A program made the position numbers and the translations under genes. This document shows positions 1,689 through 46,138 of a DNA stretch of 64,000 bases, in pieces. Under the pieces are notes generated by a model, which was not told the origin of the DNA, did no database searches, and worked only from the letters and a program-made list of their open reading frames with translations. This stretch comes from a virus. Its lineage: Duplodnaviria; Caudoviricetes. The stretch lies in the IMG/VR virus record IMGVR_UViG_3300037424_000485, positions 32,001-96,000 of that record; one strand, given 5' to 3'. Position 1 is the first letter of the stretch, and every line of letters starts with the position of its first letter.

Positions 1689-2195
1689 ATGCAATATTCA
1701 TTCGACAACAAAAATTTTCACAACACACCATATGATGCTTTTTTATCTCACAAAAGTTATATTATTTATTGTAGTAATGGCGAACAATATAATATTAATT
1801 ATTTTTTAAGAGACTTTGCTAGATGGTGCGCCTTACAAGTCTTACACTTATGGGATGCTCCCGATATTGTTGTTGAATATCTTAAAACAGGTAATGAAGA
1901 TTTAAGAAAAAAAGCTAAACACGATGCTTTAGCAGTTGCTAATGCTGCTGCTTATGCTGCTTATGCTGCTAATGATGCTGCTAATGCTGATGCTTATGCT
2001 GCTTATGCTGCTAATGCTGCTGCTTATGCTGCTTATGCTGCTAATGATGCTGCTAATGCTGCTGCTTATGCTGCTTATGCTGCTAATGATGCTGCTAATG
2101 CTGCTAATGATGTTAAAGAAAAACAAAGAAATAAATTTAACGAATTTATTAATAATATAATTGACTATATTCCAAAAGAGCTGTTTGAAATGTGA
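1689..2195 (+). CDS. Hypothetical protein with Ala-rich repeat and C-terminal IPKELFEM tag
   Basis: RBS-like AAGGA upstream. AAYAAYAANDAAN repeats. Ends YIPKELFEM. Confidence 0.8.
   Translation: MQYSFDNKNFHNTPYDAFLSHKSYIIYCSNGEQYNINYFLRDFARWCALQVLHLWDAPDIVVEYLKTGNEDLRKKAKHDALAVANAAAYAAYAANDAANADAYAAYAANAAAYAAYAANDAANAAAYAAYAANDAANAANDVKEKQRNKFNEFINNIIDYIPKELFEM
1938..2110 (+). repeat. GCT-based low-complexity coding tandem repeat (AAY/AAN/DAAN units)
   Basis: Repeated gctgcttat, gctgctaat and gatgctgct units seen directly. Confidence 0.95.
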
Positions 2196-2202
2196 TATTT
2201 TC

Positions 2203-2231
2203 TTGACTAGATCCTGGAAAAGTTTTATAAT
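2203..2231 (+). promoter_or_regulatory. sigma70-type early promoter
   Basis: TTGACT-17 nt-TATAAT upstream of the CCA gene. Confidence 0.75.
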
Positions 2232-2267
2232 ATATTAAAGATTAATTCAAACAAATAGGTATAGTAA

Positions 2268-3716
2268 ATGAAATTTATACAGTATATAAATGAATCCTCA
2301 GATGTAGATATCAAGAAAAGATGGGCTGATTATATCAAATCTGATCTCATGATTAAGAATGGTGTGGATATCCTTAGAAAAATTAACTCTAAAGGATATG
2401 ATGCTTTTATTGTTGGCGGTGCTGTTCGTGATCTCATCCTTGGTGATAAACCTCATGATATAGATATATCTACCAATTGTCCTATGGATGTTCTTGAGAA
2501 GATGTTCAAGACATATGATATCGGCAAATCCAAAACATTTGGTATTGTTGCTGTTAATCAAGGCGGTAATACTTATGAGATAGCTCAATTTAGAAATGAG
2601 AGTGATTATTCAAACGGTAGACACCCTGATACTATCAAAATAGTTAAAGATTTTAAATCAGATGCTGCACGTAGGGATTTAACCATCAATGCAATGGCTG
2701 TAGATGCTGATGGTAATATTATAGATCATTTCAACGGTAAGAGAGCTGTTTTCGATAAGGTAATCAAAACTGTTGGTAATCCTAATGATAGATTCCAAGA
2801 AGACCACCTCAGAATGATGAGGGCTGTACGTTTTTCTGGCAAGTTGGGGTTTGACATTGATGTTGAAACTAAAGATTCTATCAAGAAAAACAAAGACCTT
2901 ATCAAGAACATCTCTATTGAGAGAGTTAAAGATGAGCTTATTAAGATGGCATCCCAAGAAGGTAATAAATTTGCAGATAGCATTTTGATGTTGGATGAAG
3001 TTGGCATTCTTGATATCATCCTTCCAGAGATTACTAAATTAAAGCAGTTCAAAGAGACTGAGAGGCACCATCCTGAAGCATATGAGAATGGGGGAGGTAC
3101 TGTATTCGATCATACCATTGCAGCTCTTAGAATGAATAAATTGATAGATCCTCTTGTTAATTTGGGTGTGTTGTTTCATGACATTGGCAAGCAATCTACA
3201 TATAAATGGGATTCTGATAAAGATTCTCATTCTTACCATGGACATGCTAAAGAGGGTAAAGACCTTATTGATATTATAGCTAAGAGGCTGAAGTTATCAA
3301 ATAAAGAGTATGATTCTATCTTGTTTTCTATGGTAAATCACATGAGTCTGTTTAATGGCATTGATATGAAGCCATCGAAAATTATAAAACTGGTTAAAGA
3401 TGAAAACTGGAATATCTTAGTTCAAGTAAGTTACTGTGATGACAGTTGCAGGACTAACCTTTTTGACAAAAAAACATTTGACAGCACCATTGATAATATG
3501 ATTTCTATTGCTAATAAATGGGGTGATAAGATCTCTGGGACTACTGTTAAAGTTATCGATGGTAAACAGGTTATGAAATTAACTGGTATAAAACAAGGGA
3601 AACAGATTGGAGAAATAATCAGTACGGTTACTGATATTGTTCTCAGAAATGGTATTAAAAATCAAAAAGATATAAATACACTTATAATGAAAGTCTTTAA
3701 TGACATGGAGAAATAA
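2268..3716 (+). CDS. cca: Class II CCA tRNA nucleotidyltransferase with HD domain
   Basis: VGGAVRD..G..PHDIDI (DxD), RRDLTINAM, F.ED.LRM.RA.RF and FHDIGK HD motifs. Confidence 0.9.
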   Translation: MKFIQYINESSDVDIKKRWADYIKSDLMIKNGVDILRKINSKGYDAFIVGGAVRDLILGDKPHDIDISTNCPMDVLEKMFKTYDIGKSKTFGIVAVNQGGNTYEIAQFRNESDYSNGRHPDTIKIVKDFKSDAARRDLTINAMAVDADGNIIDHFNGKRAVFDKVIKTVGNPNDRFQEDHLRMMRAVRFSGKLGFDIDVETKDSIKKNKDLIKNISIERVKDELIKMASQEGNKFADSILMLDEVGILDIILPEITKLKQFKETERHHPEAYENGGGTVFDHTIAALRMNKLIDPLVNLGVLFHDIGKQSTYKWDSDKDSHSYHGHAKEGKDLIDIIAKRLKLSNKEYDSILFSMVNHMSLFNGIDMKPSKIIKLVKDENWNILVQVSYCDDSCRTNLFDKKTFDSTIDNMISIANKWGDKISGTTVKVIDGKQVMKLTGIKQGKQIGEIISTVTDIVLRNGIKNQKDINTLIMKVFNDMEK

Positions 3717-3717
3717 A

Positions 3718-4092
3718 ATGAAAGATTTAGTAGATAAATATTTGGTTAGTGAGGCCGCTGCTGATAAAGCAGCTGCAAAAGAGTTAGAACTGTATATTTC
3801 TAATGATAGTACACTTTACAGACAACAAACAGTTACTATTCAGAAGAACCTTATGACTAAGAAAGCACAAGGTAAATATGATTCTGAGATGTCTGTGAAG
3901 CTATGGATGTACTTGATGGATGCTGGTGCAAAGAAGTATGCAAAAGACCATGCAAATCCTAACGACTGGAATACCATCTTTACAAAAGAAACTCGTATCG
4001 AAGCAGCAAAAATGTTTAGAGATGAGTTTGAGGAAAATGCAGAAAATGGTGAATATGATAAATATATTCCTAAAAAGTATCAAAATAAATAA
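3718..4092 (+). CDS. Conserved phage hypothetical protein; capsid-targeting-like N-terminus
   Basis: Starts MKDLVDKYLVSEA immediately after the cca stop. ELELYISND.LYRQ...GKYD...LW.Y..DAGAKKY pattern. Confidence 0.7.
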   Translation: MKDLVDKYLVSEAAADKAAAKELELYISNDSTLYRQQTVTIQKNLMTKKAQGKYDSEMSVKLWMYLMDAGAKKYAKDHANPNDWNTIFTKETRIEAAKMFRDEFEENAENGEYDKYIPKKYQNK

Positions 4093-4103
4093 CACATAAA
4101 GCC

Positions 4104-4151
4104 AAATTATAAACCCTTTTATTATAAATAAGTATAAAGGGTTTATAATTT
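4104..4151. promoter_or_regulatory. 16-bp perfect inverted repeat whose loop contains a T4-type late promoter
   Basis: aaattataaacccttt (4104-4119) pairs with aaagggtttataattt (4136-4151). TATAAATA at 4123-4130. Confidence 0.8.
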
Positions 4152-4173
4152 AACAAAAAGGAATATAGCTACT

Positions 4174-4356
4174 ATGAAACTAAAGAATTTTATATCAGAG
4201 GCACAATTCCGTAAGGGTCAGAATGTAACTATTATCGATACTGGTGAGGCCGGATGTATAGTAAAGATTGGTTCAAATACCCAAATGGTTCAATTCTCTG
4301 ATGGTTCTACTAGACCTTTCGGAAATCATGAGCTTAAAGATCGTATGGTAAGCTAA
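4174..4356 (+). CDS. Small KOW/SH3-like protein; capsid-targeting-like N-terminus
   Basis: MKLKNFISEA then FRKGQNVTIIDTGE.G.IVKI. RBS AAGGA and a late promoter upstream. Confidence 0.65.
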   Translation: MKLKNFISEAQFRKGQNVTIIDTGEAGCIVKIGSNTQMVQFSDGSTRPFGNHELKDRMVS

Positions 4357-4468
4357 AAGAAATGATATATAATTAAATGCTGGCAGTAGCAAGATATCAA
4401 AAGATGCTGTTAAATCAGGAAGTCTTAAAGGCTATGAAAATACTGTAAAAGGCATCATAGATTACTAC

Positions 4469-4476
4469 TATAAATA
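4469..4476 (+). promoter_or_regulatory. T4-type late promoter
   Basis: TATAAATA ending 15 nt before the ATG at 4491. Confidence 0.65.
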
Positions 4477-4490
4477 TCTGGATAAATAAT

Positions 4491-4805: not shown

Positions 4806-4810
4806 TAAAC

Positions 4811-6943: not shown

Positions 6944-7318
6944 TTATAATCTAAATAATTCATCTGGTAAGACATATCTACTCTCATGAGTTTTTATATA
7001 ATATCTACGTAGGCCATTCGTTTCATAATACATCGATCTGTTAGCATCTATATGAATAGACAATACATCTATTACATTATTATCATATCTGGTATATTGT
7101 GCTATTCCAAGCCCTATTGCCTTTATAACTATAACTATATCTTTAACAGTCTTATCTACAAATACTGGAATATAGTAAGCACCATCTATTTGGCCTTCCT
7201 GTATAAGTCTGGTCGATTCAGTTTCAAACCCCTCTGAATCATATACAGAGTAATACGCATCTGGATCTCCTCTAAGAACCTCGCAAAAAGTAAGTGTAAA
7301 TGAATTGGTATCTGACAT
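6944..7318 (-). CDS. Hypothetical protein with C-terminal LPDELFRL tag
   Basis: 124-aa ORF ending YVLPDELFRL. Confidence 0.75.
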   Translation of the reverse strand: MSDTNSFTLTFCEVLRGDPDAYYSVYDSEGFETESTRLIQEGQIDGAYYIPVFVDKTVKDIVIVIKAIGLGIAQYTRYDNNVIDVLSIHIDANRSMYYETNGLRRYYIKTHESRYVLPDELFRL

Positions 7319-7321
7319 ATT

Positions 7322-7732
7322 TTATTTCTCCATATCAAATAGATGGTCAGGTAAGATGTCAATGTTTTTCTTATACATTGTCTTTGAAAGAATCATTTCT
7401 TCACCATCAAAATATGTAAGAGATGACCTTTGAGGATCTTCTGACCAACCACCATCTCTTATTACTTGTCTAAAATCACAATATGTTATTGATCCTTGTA
7501 TATGAGTATATCGATGGTCTGGATTAGCATGAAACCCTCTTGTATCTATAATAGGTAATCCATCTATATCATAATAGGCAGGAATTTCTAATCTACTATA
7601 TCTTGGGTCTGGATTAGCATGAAACCCTCTTGTATCTATAATAGGTAATCCATCTATATCATAATAGGCAGGAATTTCTAATCTACTCAATTCGCTCACA
7701 TCCCATATATATTCTTCATTTGTCCAGGCCAT
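7322..7732 (-). CDS. Hypothetical protein with 30-aa internal duplication and C-terminal LPDHLFDM tag
   Basis: SRLEIPAYYDIDGLPIIDTRGFHANPD occurs twice. Ends ILPDHLFDMEK. Confidence 0.75.
   Translation of the reverse strand: MAWTNEEYIWDVSELSRLEIPAYYDIDGLPIIDTRGFHANPDPRYSRLEIPAYYDIDGLPIIDTRGFHANPDHRYTHIQGSITYCDFRQVIRDGGWSEDPQRSSLTYFDGEEMILSKTMYKKNIDILPDHLFDMEK
7516..7687. repeat. 90-nt-period tandem duplication
   Basis: 7516-7597 is identical to 7606-7687. Confidence 0.95.
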
Positions 7733-7793: not shown

Positions 7794-8705
7794 TTAACAT
7801 CTTTCCCTTTTCATATTACAGCCATCTTGTTTATGTACTGCTTTATGGCATTTTTTGCATAGTGTAACACAATTATCAACATCAGCACTCTCAACAGGAT
7901 TGATCTCAATACCTTCAAAGTGATGACAGTGTAATTCTTTTGATGAATCACATTTTTGACATACCCAATTGTCTCTTTCTAATACAAGCTTTCTAAGTTG
8001 TGGTTGTACTTCTCTTGATGTTGATTTTTTATCATATCTATTATCATCTTTTGAATATACTTTTTGATAATATGTTCCACATGCGTTCTTACATCCATAA
8101 GAACAATAAAGGTTGCTCTCTCCATTAAGGTTCCCTTTTATTGATTGTATCTTTGATTGTACTGTAGATCTCGATGGGATAAACCATTTATTACAATACC
8201 AGCATCTAACCTCAAGAATATTTTCATCTATAACTGACCGTCTGCATTGAATACCGTATGGTTGAAGTGAGTAATATTGAGAGTTATATAATGGTATATT
8301 ATTCTTTTTATAACATTTACCATCACCAACACCACATTTATAACAACCCATCCCTCTTAGATGACTTATAGCTTTTTGTTCAAAAACTCCATGTATAGGA
8401 CATATAATTTTAACTTTGGTAAGACAGTCTGTATATTCAACTAATGAGTAATCATATCTATCACCATGTACATCTACACTACTATCTATAAAATCTTTTG
8501 TTGTTCTATATTTTCCAGAACATTTAGGACAATTTATTCCTCTTTTATGATGATATGGAGATTGTTCAAATACACCATGTATTAAACATATAATTTTAAC
8601 TTTAATATGAGATGTTATATATTCAACTAATGAGTAATCATACCTATCACCATGTATTAATCTACAATCAGCGATAAATCTATATGTTGTTAGTTTTCTT
8701 GACAT
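7794..8705 (-). CDS. HNH homing endonuclease, family copy 2 (DUF723-like HGDRYDYS repeats)
   Basis: Two HGDRYDYSLVEY...CPIHGVFEQ repeats plus the shared C-terminal HNH module. Confidence 0.85.
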   Translation of the reverse strand: MSRKLTTYRFIADCRLIHGDRYDYSLVEYITSHIKVKIICLIHGVFEQSPYHHKRGINCPKCSGKYRTTKDFIDSSVDVHGDRYDYSLVEYTDCLTKVKIICPIHGVFEQKAISHLRGMGCYKCGVGDGKCYKKNNIPLYNSQYYSLQPYGIQCRRSVIDENILEVRCWYCNKWFIPSRSTVQSKIQSIKGNLNGESNLYCSYGCKNACGTYYQKVYSKDDNRYDKKSTSREVQPQLRKLVLERDNWVCQKCDSSKELHCHHFEGIEINPVESADVDNCVTLCKKCHKAVHKQDGCNMKRERC

Positions 8706-13876: not shown

Positions 13877-14185
13877 ATGCACAATTATAAAGTTGGTGAT
13901 AGAGTAAAATACATCTCTAACCACTGGAAGGACACCGAAACCAATCCTCTATGGGATGGCAAGTATGGTAGGATTACAGGAACTATTATTCCTTATATTG
14001 CTAATGATTTTACCAACAAGGTGTTATGGGATAGCAAGTATGGTAGGATTACAGGAACTATTATTCCTTATATTGCTAATGATTTTACCAACAAGGTGTT
14101 ATGGGATAATGGATATACAAATTCATACTGTCTAGATGATTTGGAGATTGTGGATTATATACCAGAAGATATGTTTAAAATGTGA
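13877..14185 (+). CDS. KOW/SH3-like protein with 25-aa duplication and C-terminal IPEDMFKM tag
   Basis: YKVGDRVKY start. KYGRITGTIIPYIANDFTNKVLWD occurs twice. Confidence 0.8.
   Translation: MHNYKVGDRVKYISNHWKDTETNPLWDGKYGRITGTIIPYIANDFTNKVLWDSKYGRITGTIIPYIANDFTNKVLWDNGYTNSYCLDDLEIVDYIPEDMFKM
13950..14108. repeat. 75-nt-period tandem duplication
   Basis: 13960-14033 is identical to 14035-14108. Confidence 0.95.
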
Positions 14186-14224: not shown

Positions 14225-14362
14225 ATGCACAAATATAAAGTTGGTGATAAATTTATATGTGTAATACCCCATCGAAATATCAATGATTATAATATTGGAG
14301 TATGGATAGATTGTGCCAGACCTTATTACAATATACCAGAAGATATGTTTAGGATGGGTTAA
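14225..14362 (+). CDS. 45-aa paralogue of 13877 ORF with C-terminal IPEDMFRM tag (not in ORF track)
   Basis: Same aaaggagatatatcatgcacaa RBS/start. MHKYKVGDKF...YNIPEDMFRMG. Confidence 0.7.
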   Translation: MHKYKVGDKFICVIPHRNINDYNIGVWIDCARPYYNIPEDMFRMG

Positions 14363-14475: not shown

Positions 14476-15654
14476 ATGTTAGATATTAGTGTAATTGAAT
14501 CAATTAAAACAAGTGGTGTTTTTCCAGAGCTATATATTAAAGATAGTAAAGGAAAAACACGAACTTGGCGTATATATGTAGAGGCTGTAGATGATATTGC
14601 CTCTATTAGTATCGAGAGTGGTATTCTAGGTGGTAAAATTACCAAAAAAACATCATGGACTCGTATCGGCACTAATATAGGACGTGCTAATGAGATGAGT
14701 CCTCTTCAGAAGGCTTTATTCGATGCTGGTAATAGCTGGCAGGATAAGTATGAGCATAATTATGTTCTTAGCGTTGATGATGTAGACAACCCACCTGAAT
14801 TTATATATCCTATGCTGGCTCTTACTGCTAAAAAGCAGGTACTTCCTTGTTTTGCACAAGGAAAGCTTAATGGTATTAGAGCTTTTAGTATTCGTGCTGG
14901 ACTTCCTGAATATAATTACAAACCAAATGACATGTTAACCAGTCGTGGAGGTAAAGATCTACCCACACTTGCTCATATTAAAGCAGCATGTGATGAGGTT
15001 TTTGGAAATCATACAAATCATGATGGTGAAGTATATCTACATGGTGTGCCTCTTCAAGATATTAGCGGTATGAGTAAGAAAGAGCGTGGTGGTTTAGAGA
15101 CTCTTGAATATTGGGTTTATGATATTCCTATGGTAGGTGTTGCTTTTAAAGATCGTCTTGAAATAATGAAAAAGGTTATTCCTAAAAATCATCCTATTGT
15201 TAAGATGGTTCCTACATATTGGATTGAAACACAGGAAGAGCTTGACAGGTTTCGTGCAGATATAATCAGTCAGGGCTTCGAGGGTCTTATCACAAGAACA
15301 CCAAATGGTGTTTATGGATTTGATAATCGTGGTAAAGACCTTATGAAGGATAAAGATTTTCAAGATGAAGAGTTTGATATTGTTGGATATACATCAGAAG
15401 AATATGACGATTTTGGAACAATCAGACATCTTGTAATATGGATATGTAAGGCCGGAAATCATACCTTTAATTGCAGACCAAAAGGCACTGTAGAGAATAA
15501 AGAGACACTTTTAAAGAATGCCGATGCTATGATTGGAAAACCTTTAACTGTTAGGTTTCTTGAGAAGTCGAACTTAGGTATCCCTATTGGAAATCCTGTG
15601 GGAAATTGTATAGGTGTGGATGAATTTGACACTATTGTGAGGGATTATGAATAA
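14476..15654 (+). CDS. lig: ATP-dependent DNA ligase
   Basis: YPMLA, QGKLNGIRA (KxDG-like motif I), DGEVY, YWVYD, FEGLITR and LMKDK motifs. Confidence 0.9.
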   Translation: MLDISVIESIKTSGVFPELYIKDSKGKTRTWRIYVEAVDDIASISIESGILGGKITKKTSWTRIGTNIGRANEMSPLQKALFDAGNSWQDKYEHNYVLSVDDVDNPPEFIYPMLALTAKKQVLPCFAQGKLNGIRAFSIRAGLPEYNYKPNDMLTSRGGKDLPTLAHIKAACDEVFGNHTNHDGEVYLHGVPLQDISGMSKKERGGLETLEYWVYDIPMVGVAFKDRLEIMKKVIPKNHPIVKMVPTYWIETQEELDRFRADIISQGFEGLITRTPNGVYGFDNRGKDLMKDKDFQDEEFDIVGYTSEEYDDFGTIRHLVIWICKAGNHTFNCRPKGTVENKETLLKNADAMIGKPLTVRFLEKSNLGIPIGNPVGNCIGVDEFDTIVRDYE

Positions 15655-16407: not shown

Positions 16408-16695
16408 ATGTATTATACTGGATGGAAGTATCATATAGACAATGAAGATCATTTTAAAACTCTTCAAAGATATTGGATTGATAAACACTATACATGGGTA
16501 ACAGGTATTAAAAATGTATTAGATTTTGATTATATATATAACGAGTGTTGAACAGTACCAAACTGGCTTTATATCCAAGAAGACTGTGAAATGTTTTTTT
16601 GTAGAGGACTAGATAATGGTCAAGAAATCAATGATGATCATATTTACAATCTTGCTTATTTATATACAATACCAGAGGAGATGTTTAAAATATAA
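16408..16695 (+). pseudogene. 95-codon frame with one in-frame TGA and C-terminal IPEEMFKI tag
   Basis: ATG 16408, TGA 16549-16551. The same frame continues TVPNWLY...YTIPEEMFKI to TAA. Confidence 0.65.
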
Positions 16696-21904: not shown

Positions 21905-22705
21905 TTATTTACATTTTTTTCTTCTCATGTCACAATGCTTATGAATAGCATTGTGACATTTTTTGCATAATGTAATACAATTATCAACATCGGCACTTTC
22001 TATTTTATTTATCTCAATGCCTTCAAAGTGATGGCAATGAAGGTCTGATGTTGAATTACATTTTTGACATTTCCAATTATCTCTTTCAAGAACCAATTTT
22101 CTCAACTGAGGGCCTACTTCACGTGAAGTATCCGGTTTGATGCCTTCTAAGTGTTTGTATTTATTATAAGTTCCGCATGATTTTTTACAACTGGTAGAAC
22201 AATAAAGATTTGATTCCCCTGTTTTTGTACCATCAATAGCTTGAATTCTCAATCTAACTTCTCCTGTTTTGGGCTTAAAATATTTACCACAATATTTACA
22301 TCTTACTTCAAGTGATACACCATCATCAGCTAATCTAGGTTCTTCTTCTACTGTTAGCCTGTTATTATATAATTGATATAGCGCGTCTGTTTTTAGATGG
22401 TATTTCTTTTTCTCAGAAATAATATCTTTGTTATTTGCTCTATATTTTTTATTACTATCGTTAATATTTTCTTTGTTATCTGTTCTATACTGTCTATGGT
22501 ATAGATTAATTTTTTCTTGATTATTATAATAATATTTCTTATTACTATCGTTAATATTTTCTTTGTTATCATCTCTATACTGTTTTTGGCATTGTTTGCA
22601 AGTATATGAAATTCCATCAAAATATCTCTTATTACTATTAAATTCATCAAAAGATTTTATTTCATTACATTTAGGACATTTTTTGATATAAATAGGGATA
22701 GACAC
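21905..22705 (-). CDS. HNH homing endonuclease, family copy 3
   Basis: KKCPKC N-terminus, EEPRLADDGVSLEVRCKYC and the shared HNH module. Confidence 0.85.
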   Translation of the reverse strand: MSIPIYIKKCPKCNEIKSFDEFNSNKRYFDGISYTCKQCQKQYRDDNKENINDSNKKYYYNNQEKINLYHRQYRTDNKENINDSNKKYRANNKDIISEKKKYHLKTDALYQLYNNRLTVEEEPRLADDGVSLEVRCKYCGKYFKPKTGEVRLRIQAIDGTKTGESNLYCSTSCKKSCGTYNKYKHLEGIKPDTSREVGPQLRKLVLERDNWKCQKCNSTSDLHCHHFEGIEINKIESADVDNCITLCKKCHNAIHKHCDMRRKKCK

Positions 22706-22926: not shown

Positions 22927-23214
22927 GTGGTGTTACCTATGTATAATTTTGATAAAGGCGAATATAAAATATATGTGTATAATGATGGAAAATTAATAGA
23001 TGAGTTAAAAAGAAAATTTAAGGGTGATGATAGAATGTTATCACATCTTAAATGTATTAATCAAGATACGTATTATTTTAGAATAAAAAATGGCATATTC
23101 GTAGGACATAACCATGAAGAATACAAACATTATGATACTAAAAATACAATAATGGTAGATGGTAGAACCTTAGTATGTATGGGTATTGTTCCAGAAGAAT
23201 TATTTAAAATGTGA
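22927..23214 (+). CDS. Hypothetical protein with C-terminal VPEELFKM tag
   Basis: Ends GIVPEELFKM. The start may be ATG 22939. Confidence 0.7.
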   Translation: MVLPMYNFDKGEYKIYVYNDGKLIDELKRKFKGDDRMLSHLKCINQDTYYFRIKNGIFVGHNHEEYKHYDTKNTIMVDGRTLVCMGIVPEELFKM

Positions 23215-24507: not shown

Positions 24508-24984
24508 ATGAAATTTAATAATTTTTTAAAAGAAAGTACAAAACCACCAAAACCATCCACCAATTGTGATTATAAAGTAAATGTTTTTACTTCATTTTTA
24601 TCACCAGATGAAAAGGATGTATCCTATCTATATTCATTATCAGATAAGACAAATAAAAACTTTGTATTGTCAAATGACGGGTCTGTATTCTTTTGGGAGT
24701 ATACAGGTAGTAAAAAAGATAAAGAAATATTTTCATGTGCTGAAAAGTCAGATGAGAAACTTGAAAAACCTCATGCATCTAAAAAAGAATACTTTGCTGG
24801 TGTTCTTGATGGGAAGTATGTAGTTATAGATTCAAACCATAAGATTGTTATCTCAGCAAATTCATTTGATCGTATGATGGCTGATATTGTTGAAGATTGG
24901 GGAAAATATCCAATTTACGATTGGCCTGAACCAGATAGTAAGGATGGATCTGCTGGAGTTTATGACAGAAACCATTACAGTTAA
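24508..24984 (+). CDS. Hypothetical late protein; capsid-targeting-like N-terminus
   Basis: MKFNNFLKES start. Confidence 0.7.
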   Translation: MKFNNFLKESTKPPKPSTNCDYKVNVFTSFLSPDEKDVSYLYSLSDKTNKNFVLSNDGSVFFWEYTGSKKDKEIFSCAEKSDEKLEKPHASKKEYFAGVLDGKYVVIDSNHKIVISANSFDRMMADIVEDWGKYPIYDWPEPDSKDGSAGVYDRNHYS

Positions 24985-27744: not shown

Positions 27745-28503
27745 ATGAAAATAACCTGGGATAATATAGATGATTTTATTATTTATAATGGATTATTTAA
27801 AAGAAAAAATGTTAAATATTATCTGATGATATGTGAAGTGTGTAAAAATGAATATTTTGCTAGGAAATATGGATATGATAGAGGTAGGGAGAGATGTTGT
27901 TGTTTTCTATGCTCAACCAAATCAAAGAGGCTGAAGGATAGTGTTAGTAATAAATTGAAGGGATCTATAAGCAATCTTTGGAAAGGAGGTTATTATAATA
28001 GAAATATACCTACTTATGATACATTTGCATATCAATTAGAGCCATATGGTGTGGAATGTAGAAGAAATAATGATGACTGTAATATATTAGAAGTTAAATG
28101 TCATTTGTCTAATTGTGATAGTTGGTTTATTCCTACTATATTAGAAGCAAGAAATAAAATAAGATCTATAAATACTGGTTTTTGTAGTAGAAATATATAT
28201 TGTTCTGATGATTGTAAGAAAATATGTCCTAGTTTTAATAAACAAATATATCAAGAAGGTTTTAAACGCTATACTTCTAGAGAATCACAACCAGCTTTAA
28301 GAAAATTGGTTCTTGAGAGAGACAATTGGACATGTCAGAAGTGTGGATCAACAAAAGACCTTCATTGTCATCACTTTGAAGGCATAGAAATAAATCCTGT
28401 TGAGAGTGCTGATATAGACAATTGTATAACATTATGTAAAAAGTGTCATAAAGAAGTACATAAACAAGATGGATGTAATATGCAAAGGGAAAAATGTAAA
28501 TAA
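27745..28503 (+). CDS. HNH homing endonuclease, family copy 4
   Basis: MKITWDNID N-terminus plus the shared HNH module. Immediately upstream of uvsX. Confidence 0.85.
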   Translation: MKITWDNIDDFIIYNGLFKRKNVKYYLMICEVCKNEYFARKYGYDRGRERCCCFLCSTKSKRLKDSVSNKLKGSISNLWKGGYYNRNIPTYDTFAYQLEPYGVECRRNNDDCNILEVKCHLSNCDSWFIPTILEARNKIRSINTGFCSRNIYCSDDCKKICPSFNKQIYQEGFKRYTSRESQPALRKLVLERDNWTCQKCGSTKDLHCHHFEGIEINPVESADIDNCITLCKKCHKEVHKQDGCNMQREKCK

Positions 28504-35038: not shown

Positions 35039-35941
35039 ATGTCAAGAAAAATAACTACCTATGACCAGCTAGATAGTTTTCATATTACCAGAAATGGCAA
35101 TATATCAACAAAAGATGGTATAATTATAGAATTTGAAGATAATTGTAGTGTATGTGGTGAGTTATATTATAGGAGACAAAAAAGAGATAGTCTAATATGC
35201 TCTTTAGATTGTAAAAAGAATATAGAAGATAAAGAAATGATAAATTTATTATCTATTGATGGTTATAAAGTATTGGGCCTATATTCTAAAAACAAGAGAA
35301 GATATGCAAAAATGATATGTCCTTTTGGACATATCAATAACATTATGGCTTTTAATTTTAAAAATGGTCATAGATGTAAAAAATGTGCATATACTGGTAA
35401 TAAAAATAGCCATTGGAAAGGCGGTGTGGTTACTCGTAACATTCCATTATATAATACATATTATAAACAGTTGGATACATATGAAGAAGTTAGAAGATCA
35501 TCAATAGATGAAAACATATTAGAAGTAAGATGTACATATTGTAATAAATGGTATATACCAAAAAGAACATCTGTTAGAAGTAGGATACAATCTATTATTG
35601 GACAGACTACAGGAGAGAATAGATTTTATTGTTCTAATGGATGTAAAGGTAGCTGTGAAATATTTAATCAACAAACACAAATAAAAGGTCATAAACCCAA
35701 TAAATACACAAGAGAAGTTCAACCGCAACTAAGAAAGATAGTATTAGAGCGTGATAATTGGAAATGTCAGAAGTGTAGTGATATCAATATCCAATTACAC
35801 TGCCATCATATTGACCCTGTTGTAAACAACCCTATTGAAAGTGCAGATATTGATAACTGTATTACATTATGTAAAAAATGTCATAAGAAGGTTCACAAAC
35901 AAGTAGGTTGCGGGTATAATGATTTAAAATGTGGGCGATAG
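35039..35941 (+). CDS. HNH homing endonuclease, family copy 5
   Basis: CPFGH..NFKNGHRCKKC module plus a shared HNH module variant (HHIDPVVNNPIESADIDNC). Confidence 0.85.
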   Translation: MSRKITTYDQLDSFHITRNGNISTKDGIIIEFEDNCSVCGELYYRRQKRDSLICSLDCKKNIEDKEMINLLSIDGYKVLGLYSKNKRRYAKMICPFGHINNIMAFNFKNGHRCKKCAYTGNKNSHWKGGVVTRNIPLYNTYYKQLDTYEEVRRSSIDENILEVRCTYCNKWYIPKRTSVRSRIQSIIGQTTGENRFYCSNGCKGSCEIFNQQTQIKGHKPNKYTREVQPQLRKIVLERDNWKCQKCSDINIQLHCHHIDPVVNNPIESADIDNCITLCKKCHKKVHKQVGCGYNDLKCGR

Positions 35942-35971: not shown

Positions 35972-36481
35972 ATGTATTTAGAACTAAGTGCAAGACAAAC
36001 AGGCAAGACCACAAGACTCATAGAACATGTTATAGAACGGCTTCAAAATGATGCACGTAAATATGTTGCTATCATAGGTATGGGCTATAGTCACACTGAT
36101 GCTATAAAGAAAAGATTCTCTCATGCCCTTCCATGGCATGAGTTTAAACATATTAGATTCTCTTCATCATATATGGGTCTGGTGCCAGAGTTATATGATA
36201 CTGTTTATTTTGATGAATTTTGTTCTCATATAAGTATTCCTATCATACCTAATGGTTATTACTCATCAACCCCCACTAGTTTAGATAATTCATTTCTTAG
36301 AGAGTTGATAAATTACAACAACGGTCATTATGAGACATACAAAAATCATAAGATCGAAGAAGATTGGATTAATAATATTGGGGATGTAAATATGGATATT
36401 GGATTTACTCTAAAAACATTCTATGATAATTTTCCCCCACCTAACAGAAGCGTAGTACCAGAAGAATTATTCCAAATGTAA
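35972..36481 (+). CDS. Small P-loop NTPase-like protein with C-terminal VPEELFQM tag
   Basis: SARQTGKTT Walker A, VYFDEF Walker B-like. Confidence 0.7.
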   Translation: MYLELSARQTGKTTRLIEHVIERLQNDARKYVAIIGMGYSHTDAIKKRFSHALPWHEFKHIRFSSSYMGLVPELYDTVYFDEFCSHISIPIIPNGYYSSTPTSLDNSFLRELINYNNGHYETYKNHKIEEDWINNIGDVNMDIGFTLKTFYDNFPPPNRSVVPEELFQM

Positions 36482-37560: not shown

Positions 37561-38666
37561 ATGACGGTAATAACAACAGAAGAATTTATTAAAAGATCCA
37601 AAGAAGTGCATGGCGATAGATATGATTATAGTGTATCTACATATAATGGGTTTAGAAAACATGTGAATATTGTATGTTCTATACATGGTATATTTAAACA
37701 AACCCCTGTTAAACATTACAGTGGTAATGGTTGTCATAAATGTGGACAAATCTCTTCTAATAAAAAAACACCAAAACAACAGAAGATTTCATAAAACAAG
37801 CATCCGTTAAACACAATAATAAATATAACTACATGTTGGTCGATTATATTAAATCATACAATAATATAAAAATAATATGCCCTGTTCATGGTATATTTGA
37901 ACAAACACCTAGAAGACATCTTAACGGTGGGTGCTTGAAATGTGGTATAGATATAAGAACAAAAACAACGGATATATTTATAAAAGAATCTATTATTATA
38001 CATGGTGATAGGTATGATTACTCATTAGTTGAATATATAACAGCTCATATTAAAGTTAAAATTATATGTTTGGTTCATGGTGTATTTGAACAGACACCCA
38101 AACTACATCTTAGATCGTCTGGGTGTCCTATGTGTTTGGGTATATTTATTGAAAGATATAATATTAACAATATACCTATATATCAAACCTATGTTCAACA
38201 ATTAGAATTATATGAAGATATTAGAAGATCATCTTATGATAAAAATATCCTTGAGATAAGATGCACTTATTGCAACAAATGGTATATCCCAAAATTAAGT
38301 CATGTCCAGACACGATTAAAAGCTATATATGGAAAAATAAAAGGAGAAAGCAGATTTTATTGTTCCGATGGATGTAAATCTAACTGTGATTTGTATGCAC
38401 AGAGTAAATATCCCAAAGGACATAAAATAAATAAACACTCAAGAGAAGTACAGCCACAACTAAGAAAATTAGTATTAGAAAGAGATAATTGGACATGCCA
38501 AAAATGTAGCAGTGATAAAGATTTACACTGTCATCACTACGAAGGCATAGAAATAAATCCTGTTGAGAGTGCTGATATAGACAATTGTATTACTCTTTGT
38601 AAAAAATGTCACAATGCTGTTCATAAACAAGATGATTGTAACATGAGAAGGAATAAATGTAAATAA
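37561..38666 (+). pseudogene. HNH homing endonuclease, family copy 6, split by a frameshift in an A7 run
   Basis: ORFs 37561-37794 and 37833-38666 join into continuous DUF723-like repeats if one A is added near 37761-37767. Confidence 0.75.
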
Positions 38667-38828: not shown

Positions 38829-39716
38829 ATGAAAACAACAATATATATAGATGCAAACAACCTAGCAATCAGATGTGCCTTTAGTCAGGATGTATATCAA
38901 GTTGGTTTAAATGATGATTATTATATAGATTGGGAGCATTGGAGCTATCTGGTATTCTCTAATATCTATAAAGCTCTCAATCATGTTACCAATTGTAATG
39001 AGATAATCTTGGCTGTAGATGCAAAGGTGTCATGGCGTAAAGATGTATGGTCTAGATATAAAGAGTCAAGGTCTAACAAAAGAGCCACAGGAAAACCTTT
39101 TGATTGGCCCTTATTCTTCGAAAAATATGCAGAACTACAAGAAGAATTTAAAAAACACTTTCCATTTAAAATATTAGCTATAGATAAGTGTGAAGCTGAT
39201 GATATTATTGGAGTTCTTGTTTTAAACAACCCCGAAAAATCACAAATTATATCTTCAGATAAAGATTTCATACAATTATATATTCCAGATAGGGTAAGTA
39301 TATACAGTCCTATGACAAGGACGAATCTGTTACATCCAAATACAGAAATGTTTCTTGTAGAGCAGAGTCTTATAGGACAGAGCAAAGATGACATATTCAA
39401 TATAATCACACCATTAGACCATCCTATAGGTAAAAGAAAACCAGGATATGGGGAAAAAGCTTTAGATAAAACCATAGCTTATGGATGGAAGAGATGGCTG
39501 AAGGATAAAAAACTAGAAGAGAGGTATGAATTTAACCGCAATCTTATGGATTTCAGGCGTATTCCAGAGCCTATTAAAGAAAATATTATCACGGCGCGTG
39601 AGAAATACGAAACACCGCATCCAGAAAATATTTACAAATTTTTTAAAGAGCATCATTGGCCTGAGTATCTTGAAAATTTAACAAATGTTGAAAATAGATT
39701 ATATGAGCTGTATTGA
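38829..39716 (+). CDS. rnh: RNase H / 5'-3' exonuclease (T4 Rnh-like)
   Basis: IDANN, WRKD...YK.SR, EADDIIG, ISSDKDFIQL and GQSKDDIFN motifs. Confidence 0.88.
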   Translation: MKTTIYIDANNLAIRCAFSQDVYQVGLNDDYYIDWEHWSYLVFSNIYKALNHVTNCNEIILAVDAKVSWRKDVWSRYKESRSNKRATGKPFDWPLFFEKYAELQEEFKKHFPFKILAIDKCEADDIIGVLVLNNPEKSQIISSDKDFIQLYIPDRVSIYSPMTRTNLLHPNTEMFLVEQSLIGQSKDDIFNIITPLDHPIGKRKPGYGEKALDKTIAYGWKRWLKDKKLEERYEFNRNLMDFRRIPEPIKENIITAREKYETPHPENIYKFFKEHHWPEYLENLTNVENRLYELY

Positions 39717-40612
39717 TGAAAATAACCTGGGATAATATAGATAAATTTTATATTACACCATCTGGAAATTTTAGATATAATAATGTAACATACGAATTAA
39801 AGAATGAGTGTGAATATTGTGGCGATCCATATTTTACAGCAAAAAGATTAGGTAATAATAAATGCTGTTCTAGATCTTGTATATCAAAAATAAATAGCAT
39901 GGGTGAAAAAAATACATTTTATGGTAAAACACATTCAAAAGAATCTTTAGAAAAAATGTCAGGTATTAATCATCACATGTATGGGAAGAAACACACAGAA
40001 GAAACACTAGAAAAGATATCAAAGAGTAGTATAGAATGGCATAGCAATAATAAACACCCTATGCTTGGAAGATATGGTTTAAAAAATCCTAATTGGAAGA
40101 ACGGATATCATAGTAATAATATACCATCGTATAATGTATATTCACATCAGTTAGAGCCATTTGAGAAAACAAGAAGATGTGCTGATGATGAAAATATATT
40201 AGAGGTAAGATGTACATATTGTAATAAATGGTATATTCCTAATAGAGTAAGTGTTAGTAATAGGATACTATCTATCACAGGATATCATACCGGGGAGAAT
40301 AGATTTTATTGTTCTGATGAATGTAAAGGAAGTTGTGATATTTTTAGACAAAGAATAAATCCAAAAGGATATAAGACTAATAATTATAAAAGAGAAGTAC
40401 AGGCACAACTAAGAAAATTAGTTTTAGAAAGAGACAACTGGACATGTCAGAAGTGTAATAATATAGAAAATTTACACTGTCATCACTTTGAGGGTATCGA
40501 AATAAACCCAATTGAAAGTGCTGATATAGACAATTGTATTACATTATGTAAAAAGTGTCATAAAGAAGTACATAAACAAGATGGCTGTAATATGAAAAAG
40601 AAAAGATGTTAA
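39713..40612 (+). CDS. HNH homing endonuclease, family copy 7 (NUMOD3)
   Basis: MKITWDNID, FYGKTHSKES and YGKKHTEET motifs plus the shared HNH module. Confidence 0.85.
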   Translation: MMKITWDNIDKFYITPSGNFRYNNVTYELKNECEYCGDPYFTAKRLGNNKCCSRSCISKINSMGEKNTFYGKTHSKESLEKMSGINHHMYGKKHTEETLEKISKSSIEWHSNNKHPMLGRYGLKNPNWKNGYHSNNIPSYNVYSHQLEPFEKTRRCADDENILEVRCTYCNKWYIPNRVSVSNRILSITGYHTGENRFYCSDECKGSCDIFRQRINPKGYKTNNYKREVQAQLRKLVLERDNWTCQKCNNIENLHCHHFEGIEINPIESADIDNCITLCKKCHKEVHKQDGCNMKKKRC

Positions 40613-42011: not shown

Positions 42012-44411
42012 TTGATAGAGACAGCGATAAGTAAAAATATTTGGAATTTGAAATACCGATATAACGGAGAGGAAGAGATAGATTTTTATAATAGACCAGT
42101 AAGAGGGCTATTTGACGGTCTTACTACCAAAGAAGAAATACAACCTTATTTTAGTATTTTAGATATGAATACTAGAGAAGATATGTATAGTGATTTAAGC
42201 AACGTATTTATAGGACATTATGGTATGCTGGCTGGTAGACCTATGTATTCTTTAGGTACAGGAAGAACAAAACAAACTTTATCAAATTGCTTTGTTTTAA
42301 ATTTTAAAAGTGATTCTATGGAAGCTATCATGGACACTGCTAAAAATTCGGCTATGACCATGAAAGCTGGCGGTGGTGTTGGATATAGTTTTAGCATTTT
42401 AAGACCTAAAAAATATATTATTAACTCTAGCGGTGCTAGATCAACTGGTGTACTATCATTTATGAATATATTCAACACCACCTGTGCTACAATTGAGGCT
42501 GGTGGTAATCGTAGGGGTGCTCAAATAGCCGTTCTGGGTGTGTGGCATCCAGATGTCATGGAGTTTATCACATGTAAGCGTAAAGGTGATGGTCTACCAG
42601 ATGAGTATAAACCCTATAAGAATTTCAATTTAAGCGTTTATATTTCTGATTTATTTATGAATGCTGTTAGAGATGACACCATGTGGGATTTGAAATTTCC
42701 AGACACCACACATCCAAAGTATGATGATGAGTGGGATGGGAATATTAACTTATGGGAAGATAAAGGATATACTGTAATTGTTCATGATACTATAAAGGCT
42801 AGAGATTTATGGGATAAAATCATGAAGTCTAGTTATGATTTCGCGGAGCCTGGAATTCTATTTGAAGATACTATCAATAAAAACAATACATTGTGGATGG
42901 AAGAATATATACTCGCATGTAATCCATGTTCAGAACAGGCCCTACCAGCAGATGGTTCATGTAATTTAGGATCTCTTAACCTTACACAATATGTACAAAA
43001 TATATTTACTAACAACGCTCATATTGATTTTGATTTATTAAAGCATATCACTACAAAAATGATTATAATGCTTGATAGGATGCTTGATGTTAATTATTAT
43101 CCATTAGAAAGACAAGCAATTAGTGCTGCATCAAAAAGACAGATAGGATTGGGTGTTACTGGTCTTGGAGATATGCTTGCAATGATGACTATAAAATATT
43201 CATCACCAGCGGGTAGAGAACTAGTTGCTGATATTATGGTTGCAATTAGAGATGCAGCATATAGAGCTAGTATAGAACTAGCAAGGCAATTAGGGCCTTT
43301 TCCATTATGGGACACATTCACACCAGAAAAAAAGAAACAATTTATAGAGGGTGGTTTTATAAAGACTCTTCCAGAAGATATAAAACAAGATATTCTTAAA
43401 TATGGAATACGCAACAGCCGACTTCTATCAATCGCCCCTACTGGAACTATATCTCTCATTATGAATAATGTTTCGAGCGGTATAGAGCCTATCTTTTTGT
43501 TAGAGTATGATAGAAAAGTAAAAACCACCAGTGAAGAAACAATCTCAGAGTCTATTGAGACATATTCATGGTTAAAATATAAGCAGTTTACAGAGCTTAA
43601 CAATCCAGAAAAACCGGACTTCTTTGAAACAACAGATGATTTAAATGTAGATGATCATTTGAATATGCTTGCTGTTATTCAGAGGCATATATGTACATCA
43701 GCATCAAAAACCATTAATATTCCAGTAGATTATGAGTATGATAGATATAAAGAAGTATTTACAAAAGCACATTCTCTTGGTATAAAGGGATGTACAGCAT
43801 ATAGACCCAATGATATTATCGGATCTGTACTGTCAAAAAAAGGTGGAAATGGGCCGTGCTCAGAAAGGCCAGAAGAAATTGCATTTATGTGTGCTCCAAA
43901 AAGACCATTAGATCTTGATTGTGAGATACACCACTGCAATATCAAAGGAAAGCCTTGGTTGGTTATAGTAGGTATGTATAAAGAAATACCATATGAAATC
44001 TTTGCTGGTGAAGCAGATGATTTATATATTCCAAAAACGTGTAAAGAAGGGGTTATCTCTAAGAGGAAAAAGGGGTCATATTCCCTTAGTGTAAAAATTA
44101 GAAATAGTGAAATTGAGTATAAAGACATTGCCCATACATTGATGACCACTGAGCAGAGGGCTATGACTAGACTGGTTAGCCTATCTCTAAGACATGGTGT
44201 TCCTCATGAGTTTGTTGTTAAGCAGCTTAGTAAGTCTAGCGGTGATATCACAGACTTCTGTGCAGTTATTACCAGAGTCCTGAAGAGCTATATTAAGCAA
44301 TACAAATATGATAAAGATGTAAAATGTCCTGAGTGTGAGGATGGTATGCTAATTAGAAAAGAAGGATGTATGTCTTGTGATAAACAGTGTGGTTACTCGA
44401 AATGCGGTTAG
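42012..44411 (+). CDS. nrdJ: Class II (adenosylcobalamin-dependent) ribonucleotide reductase with C-terminal TSCPD/zinc ribbon
   Basis: SNCF, GGGVG, RRGAQ, NPCSEQ, CNLGS, IAPTGTIS, SSGIEP and SASKTIN motifs. C-terminal CPEC...EGC..C..CGYSKC. Confidence 0.92.
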   Translation: MIETAISKNIWNLKYRYNGEEEIDFYNRPVRGLFDGLTTKEEIQPYFSILDMNTREDMYSDLSNVFIGHYGMLAGRPMYSLGTGRTKQTLSNCFVLNFKSDSMEAIMDTAKNSAMTMKAGGGVGYSFSILRPKKYIINSSGARSTGVLSFMNIFNTTCATIEAGGNRRGAQIAVLGVWHPDVMEFITCKRKGDGLPDEYKPYKNFNLSVYISDLFMNAVRDDTMWDLKFPDTTHPKYDDEWDGNINLWEDKGYTVIVHDTIKARDLWDKIMKSSYDFAEPGILFEDTINKNNTLWMEEYILACNPCSEQALPADGSCNLGSLNLTQYVQNIFTNNAHIDFDLLKHITTKMIIMLDRMLDVNYYPLERQAISAASKRQIGLGVTGLGDMLAMMTIKYSSPAGRELVADIMVAIRDAAYRASIELARQLGPFPLWDTFTPEKKKQFIEGGFIKTLPEDIKQDILKYGIRNSRLLSIAPTGTISLIMNNVSSGIEPIFLLEYDRKVKTTSEETISESIETYSWLKYKQFTELNNPEKPDFFETTDDLNVDDHLNMLAVIQRHICTSASKTINIPVDYEYDRYKEVFTKAHSLGIKGCTAYRPNDIIGSVLSKKGGNGPCSERPEEIAFMCAPKRPLDLDCEIHHCNIKGKPWLVIVGMYKEIPYEIFAGEADDLYIPKTCKEGVISKRKKGSYSLSVKIRNSEIEYKDIAHTLMTTEQRAMTRLVSLSLRHGVPHEFVVKQLSKSSGDITDFCAVITRVLKSYIKQYKYDKDVKCPECEDGMLIRKEGCMSCDKQCGYSKCG

Positions 44412-44435
44412 GATTTTAATCTAAGATAATATATT

Positions 44436-44468
44436 AAAGGTCAGGTTATAAATTTCTTGACCTTTTTT
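44436..44468 (+). terminator. Intrinsic terminator after nrdJ
   Basis: aaaggtcagg / cttgacctttt stem plus a T-tract. Confidence 0.7.
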
Positions 44469-44617
44469 ATTTTTATGGTATAATATCCTAATTGAGTTAG
44501 AATAAATTTTAATTATGATATTATGGGATTTTTGCATCAGGAGTAATTAATAGTAAGAAGATGTCTTAACGGATAATTATTTGTTTTGGGTCTTTTATAT
44601 ATGGAGAAATTATAATC

Positions 44618-44791
44618 ATGAAACGTATGATTATGACAGCACATGGTGTGAAGAGATTTGAAATTACCAATTTACTTCATATACCAAGGAAAGGGGAGAT
44701 TGTATACTATAGTGATAGCAAATTCATTGTTATTGATGTAGTGTATGATTATGATGAAAGTACAATTTATATTTACTGTAGGTTATTATGA
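44618..44791 (+). CDS. Small hypothetical protein (not in ORF track)
   Basis: GGAG RBS. MKRMIMTAHG...IPRKGEIVYY. ATGA-coupled. Confidence 0.6.
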   Translation: MKRMIMTAHGVKRFEITNLLHIPRKGEIVYYSDSKFIVIDVVYDYDESTIYIYCRLL

Positions 44792-45171
44792 TTGCTCTGA
44801 TAGTTTATAATGTAATAATGAGTATCATTTCTATTGTGGCTCTTTATTTCAACTTTTTTCCAGTTTTTATAGTATATGCCACGTATTCTATTGTAGTTGG
44901 TATTAGTGGATTTATTGTGGTATTGAGTGGAAATTTTGATGCATTCGCTAAAAGGACAGCCGATGTAGTATATAATAATGGCAAGATGACAGATTTTCTT
45001 GATAACTTTTTTTGGGCCATAACAGTATTTCTTCCTCTTGTTACGCAGCATTATTTTATATTTGTAAGTTGGTTAATACTGTTTTTGTTACAAGCCAGCC
45101 AGAAGGATAAAATAAATAAATATGTAGAAAATTTAAAATCAAAAGGCATTCAGCCTAATGATAATCTATAA
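44788..45171 (+). CDS. Predicted membrane protein
   Basis: Several hydrophobic segments. Confidence 0.7.
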   Translation: MIALIVYNVIMSIISIVALYFNFFPVFIVYATYSIVVGISGFIVVLSGNFDAFAKRTADVVYNNGKMTDFLDNFFWAITVFLPLVTQHYFIFVSWLILFLLQASQKDKINKYVENLKSKGIQPNDNL

Positions 45172-45188
45172 TTATGTTATAGATAGTA

Positions 45189-45196
45189 TATAAATA
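45189..45196 (+). promoter_or_regulatory. T4-type late promoter
   Basis: TATAAATA ending 11 nt before the ATG at 45207. Confidence 0.55.
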
Positions 45197-45206
45197 TGGT
45201 TGATCT

Positions 45207-45479
45207 ATGGGTAATTATATGTCTGGCAGTGATATAGCCAGAGAGTTAGGTATTACAAGACAAGGGGTTTCTCAGACGCTAAAATCAGGTATGAGAAAAT
45301 TGTATAAGGAGATTATACGAACAAAAATTGCAGAATCCCCATTTGATGCAATATGCGCTATGATGTGTTGTTTTGGACTTCATAGAGCACAACATGATGA
45401 TATAGTTGATTTTCTATATCTATTACCAAATGATGTAAGAAGGGAGCTACAAAATGATACAAAATACAGAAAACTCTAA
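45207..45479 (+). CDS. Helix-turn-helix DNA-binding protein
   Basis: SGSDIARELGITRQGVSQTLKSG. Confidence 0.8.
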   Translation: MGNYMSGSDIARELGITRQGVSQTLKSGMRKLYKEIIRTKIAESPFDAICAMMCCFGLHRAQHDDIVDFLYLLPNDVRRELQNDTKYRKL

Positions 45480-45630
45480 TCCTACGTGCTACTCATGCAC
45501 TGCATTTGTGATTGACGGTGACAAAGCATATTGTGATGATGATAATTTTGATAACGAGTATGTTCAAAAAGCTAAGACTTTCGAGCCCGCTATGTTTGAG
45601 TGTGTCGGATATGAACGATGTCCAGATTAA
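45454..45630 (+). CDS. Small Cys-containing protein (not in ORF track)
   Basis: AGGGAG RBS. 58 aa with CYSC. Confidence 0.55.
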   Translation: MIQNTENSNPTCYSCTAFVIDGDKAYCDDDNFDNEYVQKAKTFEPAMFECVGYERCPD

Positions 45631-45826
45631 TTATACATCAGCTGGCGAACCTCTAAAATGCTTTCATTGTAAAAGTCTCAATATACAATCTAAAAGTGTT
45701 GTTATTGAGTCAGGTTATATAAGTGAGAGAGAGTATTTTTGCGGGGATTGTAAATCATATCTGGCTTATTGGGCTTATGGTTATTTTGATCCAATGTATA
45801 GTATAGAAAGGACTGTAAGGATATAA
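45611..45826 (+). CDS. Zinc-ribbon protein
   Basis: PLKCFHC...EYFCGDC...AYWAYGY. Confidence 0.7.
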   Translation: MNDVQINYTSAGEPLKCFHCKSLNIQSKSVVIESGYISEREYFCGDCKSYLAYWAYGYFDPMYSIERTVRI

Positions 45827-45874
45827 TTAAATTTTAGTTAGCATTGAAACAGTATCATAATTGATGGGAGAATT

Positions 45875-46138
45875 ATGAAATTACAAATTGGTCATGAATA
45901 TTTGCTTGAACCAAAGGAGTGGGAAGGACATAAATACCATATGAAAGTAGTAGAATTTAGTTCTACTGGTAGAGTTTCATTTCTTTGGAGAGAAATAACA
46001 TGCGATACAAAATATGTAGATTATGTAGATAATGTAGATAATGTGCAGTATTACTCATCAACACTAAATAAATGGATTGAGGAAGGTTCAATGTTGCCTT
46101 TATCAATATTACCAGAAGAATTATTTAAAATGGAATAA
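45875..46138 (+). CDS. Hypothetical protein with C-terminal LPEELFKME tag
   Basis: GGGAG RBS. Ends ILPEELFKME. Confidence 0.75.
   Translation: MKLQIGHEYLLEPKEWEGHKYHMKVVEFSSTGRVSFLWREITCDTKYVDYVDNVDNVQYYSSTLNKWIEEGSMLPLSILPEELFKME

Follow-up and report, generated by a model that had tools for sequence, protein, structure and literature searches.

The C-terminal tails by which gp43, gp55, and gp33 of T4-family phages reach the sliding clamp gp45 are made of hydrophobic and acidic residues, sit on variable linkers, are interchangeable, and bind a hydrophobic patch of the clamp (PMC2988020). T4 gp43 ends in SLDFLFG and T4 gp55 in SLDFLYEAND, which leaves one to four trailing residues, and RB69 gp43 ends in SLFDMFDF. 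In bacteria, proteins that bind the β clamp share the consensus QL[SD]LF, which takes the form QADMF in the α subunit of Escherichia coli Pol III. Adaptors of the SspB type and AAA+ degrons also rely on short docking peptides, and the T4 capsid targeting sequence (CTS) is one short peptide shared by many unrelated proteins and used as an address. Here we describe a further C-terminal peptide tail, carried by small proteins of a virus of the class Caudoviricetes (IMG/VR record IMGVR_UViG_3300037424_000485). The window, that is, the whole stretch of DNA analyzed, is 64,000 nucleotides long and corresponds to bases 32001-96000 of the record, which is 204,431 bp long, linear, ~85% complete, 32% GC, and derived from sediment metagenomes. 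On the basis of T4-type genes (gp46/gp47, UvsW, gp23, gp20, gp19, and gp55), the record, called G000 below, is assigned to a distant, uncultured T4-like phage; it also encodes a gp41-type helicase, a DNA ligase, RtcB, and a split DNA polymerase.

The tail follows the pattern [LIV]-P-x-[ED]-[LM]-F-x-[MLI] and ends zero to three residues before the stop codon. An earlier, sequence-only reading of the window had listed eleven such sites; all are present and end as claimed, with three corrections of detail, and they amount to 10 genes and one decayed remnant. Two checks that it had put forward, a comparison of terminal with internal frequency and a search of the whole genome, were both run. When all six frames of the window were searched with the strict pattern, 12 terminal matches and 0 internal matches were found, the codon-shuffle expectation being 0.055 and 0.15, respectively; the terminal matches are the 11 real sites and one antisense chance match at 48573-48596. 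Genome-wide, the tail is present on 18 of the 325 genes predicted by our own gene calls (~6%, about one in eighteen), all of them within 33.7-139 kb of the genome, which is its early and replication half. With a 14-column position matrix, the 18 carriers score 23 to 36 bits, while the best other site in the proteome reaches 11 bits and no internal site scores high; given this gap, the tail is a discrete class and does not grade into other sequences. Positions 3 and 4 of the 18 tails are mostly acidic, positions 1, 5, 6, and 8 are hydrophobic, and extra residues follow the motif in five carriers (G, E, EK, DE, and EMV). The 47 tails pooled in this study conform to [LVI]-P-[EDQ]-[EDH]-[LM]-F-x-[MFLI], with Pro in 46 and Phe in all 47. 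The neighbors of tagged genes include ligase, helicase, polymerase, gp46/47, gp32, and ribonucleotide reductase genes, and sigma70-like promoters precede three carriers. The tail of gp32 itself, DDILDELDKMLG, is slightly tag-like; it lacks both Pro and Phe, has a low matrix score, and was rejected as a member. We found no published description of such a tail in the literature searched.

Among the described systems, the clamp-binding tails of gp43, gp55, and gp33 are the most similar. Both kinds of tail lie at the extreme C terminus with few trailing residues, combine hydrophobic with acidic residues, are portable between unrelated proteins, often on a variable linker, and occur in a T4-like lineage with gp45, gp44, and gp62. 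The last five residues of our tail, [ED]-[LM]-F-x-hydrophobic, correspond to the DMFDF of RB69 gp43, and the LPSDLFDF and LPQELFDF of related phages come closer still. The clamp-tail precedent cited by the sequence-only reading is thus the closest known analogue, although the phage's own polymerase and gp55 have a different tail. The first half of the motif also differs, being hydrophobic-P-x and not S-L-F, with Pro where the clamp-binding pattern S-L-[DF]-[FD]-[LM]-[FY] has Leu or Phe. Moreover, G000 has 18 carriers instead of three, these are small nonenzymatic domains (in relatives, also a peptidase and an L7/L12-like domain), and gp45 is at this point a candidate partner only. The β-clamp-binding motif of bacteria is similar in its core (acidic/Ser, Leu/Met, Phe), its often terminal position, and its use by many clients of one hub pocket. 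Unlike that motif, however, the tail has Pro (46/47) in place of Gln, followed by Glu, Asp, or Gln instead of a hydrophobic residue, and it varies from one related phage to the next, a variation that would not follow from a conserved host pocket. The CTS shares with the tail the principle of a common address on unrelated proteins, but it is N-terminal, belongs to genes of the late/virion modules, and is removed by the prohead protease (cut at L/I-x-E), whereas the tail is C-terminal and found on genes of the early and replication regions. About 16 late-region proteins of G000 start with a CTS-like MK[FL][KQ]QY[LI].E (genome 18523-29472; in the window, 2268-3716, 4174-4356, and 24508-24984), and this set does not overlap with the tail-bearing set.

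The carriers in the window, with the DNA ligase gene that has tagged genes on both sides, are as follows.

1689..2195, plus strand: 168-aa protein with Ala-rich YAAYAAND repeats, tail IPKELFEM-stop; the body matches phrog_18326
6944..7318, minus strand: 124-aa orphan without a Pfam or PHROG family, tail LPDELFRL-stop
7322..7732, minus strand: 136-aa protein, tail LPDHLFDM-EK-stop; paralog of a tagged 191-aa gene in the clamp-loader operon (genome 104663-105238)
13877..14185, plus strand: 102-aa SH3/KOW-like protein with an internal 25-aa duplication, tail IPEDMFKM-stop
14225..14362, plus strand: 45-aa short SH3-like protein, tail IPEDMFRM-G-stop
14476..15654, plus strand: ATP-dependent DNA ligase, given as context (phrog_114, E 9e-51); the next gene overlaps its stop codon
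15647..15856, plus strand: 69-aa SH3-like protein whose start overlaps the end of the ligase gene, tail IPDEMFIL-stop
16408..16695, plus strand: 95-codon frame ending in IPEEMFKI-stop, with an in-frame TGA at 16549-16551; the alternative is a 34-aa open reading frame (ORF) at 16591-16695
22939..23214, plus strand: 91-aa orphan, tail VPEELFKM-stop; similarity to another tagged gene is limited to its last ~19 residues
26853..26894, plus strand: relic of the 3' end of a tagged gene, 13 codons ending in REYIPSELFGM-EI-stop, with stop codons before it
35972..36481, plus strand: 169-aa P-loop (GKT) protein with a Pro-rich linker (PPPNRS) before the tail VPEELFQM-stop; weak match to phrog_5437
45875..46138, plus strand: 87-aa SH3-like protein, tail LPEELFKM-E-stop; an identical gene is present in sibling sediment samples

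Searches of Pfam and PHROGs with the ten window carriers returned nothing informative. The homologues of the 168-aa protein belong to unrelated high-GC phages that share the Ala-rich domain and are without the tail, and searches for close relatives with the 168-aa protein, or with the ligase in IMG/VR, found none. A promoter-like TTGACT-16-TATAAT site lies 49 nt upstream of 13877..14185. The 25-residue duplication in the protein encoded there is perfect, and the tail is retained in a 77-aa variant that lacks the duplication and is encoded on a 941-bp contig elsewhere. The interrupted frame at 16408..16695, identical in the contigs from two runs, could reflect a pseudogene, a pair of genes, or read-through; its part upstream of the TGA ends in VLDFDYIYNEC, which itself resembles the clamp tail of T4 gp55. 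The 91-aa gene probably starts at the ATG at 22939 rather than at 22927. A comparison of contigs from three sediment runs for strain variation showed no differences.

Relatives of G000 were located using the clamp and the ligase as handles; in the following, labels beginning with L denote related contigs or loci (except L003 and L004, which are parts of G000 itself), and G001 to G005 are other records compared with G000. By clamp identity, the tail-bearing relatives are L079 (70%), L075 (48%), and G001 and G002 (33-35%); by ligase identity, they are L204 and L205 (56-58%); L208 is a further one. No tail was found in L077, L080, L081, L082, L203, and about 30 other IMG/VR loci examined, nor in the large records G003 (from the same sample as G000), G004, and G005, and a search for clamp relatives in GTDB genomes found none. 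Scanning IMG/VR with a DNA pattern for the tail gave single matches at chance level only, and the same kind of scan in JGI metagenomes gave a terminal match in 1 of 120 loci among the matches listed, in DNA of 55% GC and probably by chance. In these comparisons, the tail is limited to a single sub-lineage of the T4-like phages, and its dialect changes from genome to genome: ..LFxM in G000, PQHLFDFD in L208, LPQELFDF in L205, and LP[DE]ELF[ITV][IV]E in G001. Uniform tails within a genome and different ones between genomes are as expected if the reader of the tail co-evolves with it. In the tag-less relative L081, a 76-aa protein encoded right after gp46 (990-1220, minus strand) ends in ..DIPDEDTGLFDWLFG, a canonical T4-like clamp tail on a small protein.

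Selection at the protein level, which the sequence-only reading had favored, is borne out by the codons. In the tails, those for Phe, Glu, Asp, Lys, and Val match the synonymous usage of the genome, and those for Ile are likewise in line; the DNA downstream of the stop codon is unrelated between tagged genes, and the downstream context varies. On L208, a related contig of 6.5 kb, 5 of the 14 genes end in an identical PQHLFDFD, for which 7 of the 24 tail nucleotides vary, all of them synonymously, and relatives at 29-41% GC retain the peptide with other codons. All of this runs counter to the possibility that conservation acts on DNA or RNA, the tail being the translation of a repeat at gene ends such as a recombination site, a part of a promoter or terminator, or a device for translational coupling. 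That possibility can draw on the sole codon excess in the tail, CCA for Pro (15 observed versus 7.7 expected), and on one case (7322-7732) in which the tail codons are closely preceded by a TTGACA-like hexamer; we consider it largely refuted and scarcely credible. It is the peptide, and not the DNA, that selection maintains.

The bodies in front of the tail are diverse, albeit less so than first thought. While the sequence-only reading had called them mostly unrelated, 8 of the 18 carriers in G000, including 4 of its 11 sites, form one SH3/KOW-like paralog family. The other 10 are not detectably related to this family, save for one paralog pair, and include one protein with Ala repeats, one with a P-loop, and one with a Zn ribbon, along with two paralogs whose fold is unknown and several orphans. 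Besides the SH3-like family, at least 8 unrelated bodies carry the tail, and the linkers in front of it may be Pro-rich, Lys-rich, Ser-Gly, or helical. A profile of the SH3 body without the tail finds no further carrier in G000.

Several comparisons between phages show the tail to be separable from the body. The M15 peptidases of G000 and L075 are 64% identical; the former is untagged, and the latter carries the tail as an added extension behind a Ser-Gly-Lys-Gly linker. In G000, L079, and L075, there is a tagged gene between gp44 and a gene for an HD-domain protein; its products in G000 and L079 are 27% identical and agree at 9 of the last 12 positions, whereas the clamps of these two phages are 70% identical. 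In an alignment of the four-member family that comprises the 191-aa and 136-aa proteins and their relatives, invariant columns occur only in the tail. A tagged family directly follows the ligase gene of L204 and L205 and has members in L208 too; its body is unrelated to that of the gene following the G000 ligase, and a profile of this body has no match in G000. Proteins like the L7/L12 C-terminal domain (CTD) bear the tail in G001 and G002 (PF00542, 34.5 bits). Small proteins with a PF00542-like core that end in LPDELFVIE are encoded at L218:4118-4483 and L226:5211-5534, both on the minus strand. An exhaustive profile search recovered 15 more small SH3-like proteins with the same ending, each in a different 50%-identity cluster and all from short metagenome contigs. 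The tail is a portable C-terminal peptide that outlasts the bodies on which it sits.

The prevalence of SH3-like bodies raises the question of whether the tail is a structural element of that family, or a ligand of the same SH3-like domains, with no outside partner or in a head-to-tail scaffold; other bodies would then have gained it by recombination. SH3-type folds often bind proline-containing peptides. Most carriers outside G000 are also SH3-like, G000 has no untagged member of the family (8/8 tagged), and in the SH3-like proteins the tail follows the last strand without a linker. In an AlphaFold2 (AF2) model of an SH3-like carrier, the tail forms a short helix that directly follows the final strand of the barrel, and a Foldseek search of this model against the Protein Data Bank returned generic SH3/KOW folds only. 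The confidence of the model in the tail is only ~60, however, and the tail also occurs on at least eight unrelated bodies behind very different linkers. In the AF2 model of the 191-aa protein, moreover, the tail helix comes after ~65 disordered residues (pLDDT 52, too poor for a fold search; its low-confidence model in the Atlas gave no usable match), and in the family of this protein the tail is the only invariant part. Synonymous variation speaks against recent copying, and we regard a purely SH3-related role as improbable. In these models, the anatomy looks like that of a tethered motif.

We propose that the tail is probably a tethered docking peptide for one shared partner. A hydrophobic residue and the invariant Pro would start a helix of one to two turns, which would present [LM]-F and the final hydrophobic residue behind one or two acidic residues. 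Placed directly after a small globular domain or on the end of a flexible linker, the tail could plug many different small early proteins into the same partner, and whatever each body binds or does would be brought there. The sequence-only reading had spoken of an addressing or docking system; what stands of this is a discrete, strictly C-terminal, portable, peptide-selected tail on diverse small early proteins that is conserved in related phages, while the shared partner is something that we infer.

The leading candidate for the partner, albeit a weak one, is a sliding clamp; we hold this idea tentatively and think it doubtful, with the phage gp45 an unlikely and the host β clamp a distinctly improbable choice. 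Both the gp45-type clamp (genome 107333-108076; phrog_223, E 1e-10) and the gp44/62 loader, a prerequisite for tails of the T4 type, are present in G000, where gp62 matches PF16790 and gp44 is split in two pieces. A tagged gene and a gene of 64-69 aa are found inside the clamp-loader operon only in tag-bearing genomes. An initial candidate for the clamp (genome 179933-180547; PF02916, E 0.002) was discarded, as it sits in the tail module and matches no PHROG. A complex prediction for the phage clamp trimer with an SH3-like tagged protein, run without controls, scored 0.12 against a mark of 0.32 and carries no weight for or against binding.

A number of observations weigh against docking and, in particular, against the clamp. 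As the sequence-only reading had noted, no core replication enzyme has the tail: the C-terminal piece of the G000 polymerase ends in KCFDIFF (..SKCFDIFF) and gp55 in SIDYTLMR, and neither ranks in the top 45 matrix scores, which extend down to 2.9 bits. The polymerases of two tag-less relatives end in MSLFFGE and TLNFFF, and the clamp tail of the lineage itself seems to be a different motif without proline. Since the clamp tails of T4 gp43, gp55, and gp33 are highly alike, one would not expect the same pocket to accept a second dialect with a proline. As cargo for a DNA clamp, an M15 peptidase and L7/L12-CTD-like domains would be odd, with no obvious role there, and in the SH3-like family, with all eight members tagged, the tail could be part of the fold. 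The clamp, the clamp loader, and the genes for ubiquitin-like (Ubl), E1, and JAB proteins are also present in tail-less relatives, and no candidate partner tracks the tail.

A host AAA+ protease or unfoldase of the ClpXP, ClpAP, Lon, or FtsH type is a rather unlikely reader of the tail, which would then be a degradation signal that clears early proteins at a later stage of infection, or an adaptor signal that delivers bound targets in the manner of SspB. Both SspB adaptors and AAA+ degrons resemble the present carriers in their layout, with a binding domain joined through a flexible linker to a short docking peptide at the C terminus, and in having one reader for many carriers. The C-terminal position, the hydrophobic end, and the small early proteins would suit this role, as would bodies that look like binding modules and not enzymes (SH3-like, Zn ribbon, and L7/L12-CTD-like), the long flexible linker before the tail in some carriers, and the peptidase carrier of L075, which is probably harmful if made early. 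The ssrA degron, however, the second precedent of the sequence-only reading, fits poorly, because zero to three variable residues trail the motif and its distance from the carboxylate is not fixed as it is in ssrA-type signals; nor is there a likeness to LAA-type or LRVVK-type (SspB XB) signals. We know of no described ClpX, ClpA, Lon, or SspB-XB motif to which the acidic residues and the invariant proline would correspond. In G000, gp44 is the only classical AAA+ protein and ClpP is absent; the reader of a degron would therefore have to belong to the host, and yet related phages differ in their tails. Another hub of phage or host origin is quite possible as the docking partner, if short of probable.

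Both gp44 and the polymerase of G000 are interrupted. The two gp44 ORFs (204 and 240 aa; genome 102124-104453, L003:8124-10453) are separated by genes for a Zn-finger protein and a TnsA-like endonuclease, while the gp44 of relatives is intact (303-306 aa). The two polymerase pieces (618 and 274 aa) lie ~5 kb apart (genome 117047-124752, L004:5047-12752), with an HNH gene, small ORFs, and two tagged genes (genome 119044 and 119301) in the gap. The clamp gene is followed by a ubiquitin-like gene (product ending in ..YDVAG; L003:14344-14595) and by E2-like, ThiF/E1, and JAB genes, an arrangement present in all relatives examined (L075, L077, L079, and L081), tail or no tail. A family of HNH-type endonucleases ending in ..HKQDGCNM[KR]R.KC is represented ten times in the window and at least 16 times genome-wide, scattered over the early region. 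A link between the tagged genes and the 16 HNH endonuclease genes was rejected, as it is not significant within the early region (p = 0.46). The copies in the window, with those on the minus strand marked as such, are as follows.

775-1650: HNH-type endonuclease
7794-8705, minus strand: HNH-type endonuclease
21905-22705, minus strand: HNH-type endonuclease
27745-28503: HNH-type endonuclease
35039-35941: HNH-type endonuclease
37833-38666: HNH-type endonuclease
39716-40612: HNH-type endonuclease
46228-46971, minus strand: HNH-type endonuclease
51482-52342: HNH-type endonuclease
53209-54573: HNH-type endonuclease

For the majority of small early genes in large phages, no function is known, and a shared, selected tail unites ~18 such genes per genome in a single functional class. 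It is tempting to assume, if only as a tentative idea that may well prove wrong, that the tail belongs to a private addressing system in which ~6% of the genes encode interchangeable small binding modules, among them SH3-like barrels, Zn ribbons, a P-loop protein, and mimics of the L7/L12 CTD kind, with the same C-terminal plug for one phage-specific, co-evolving hub; if so, the phage could recruit, sequester, or destroy changing host or phage targets at one place. Should the clamp be the partner, the client list of a viral clamp would grow from three to dozens and would include non-DNA enzymes; should the partner be something else, it would be a new hub of phage takeover. The peptide, at 8-12 residues, is usable as bait to fish out this partner, and the genome-specific dialects provide a natural co-variation experiment for identifying the reader.

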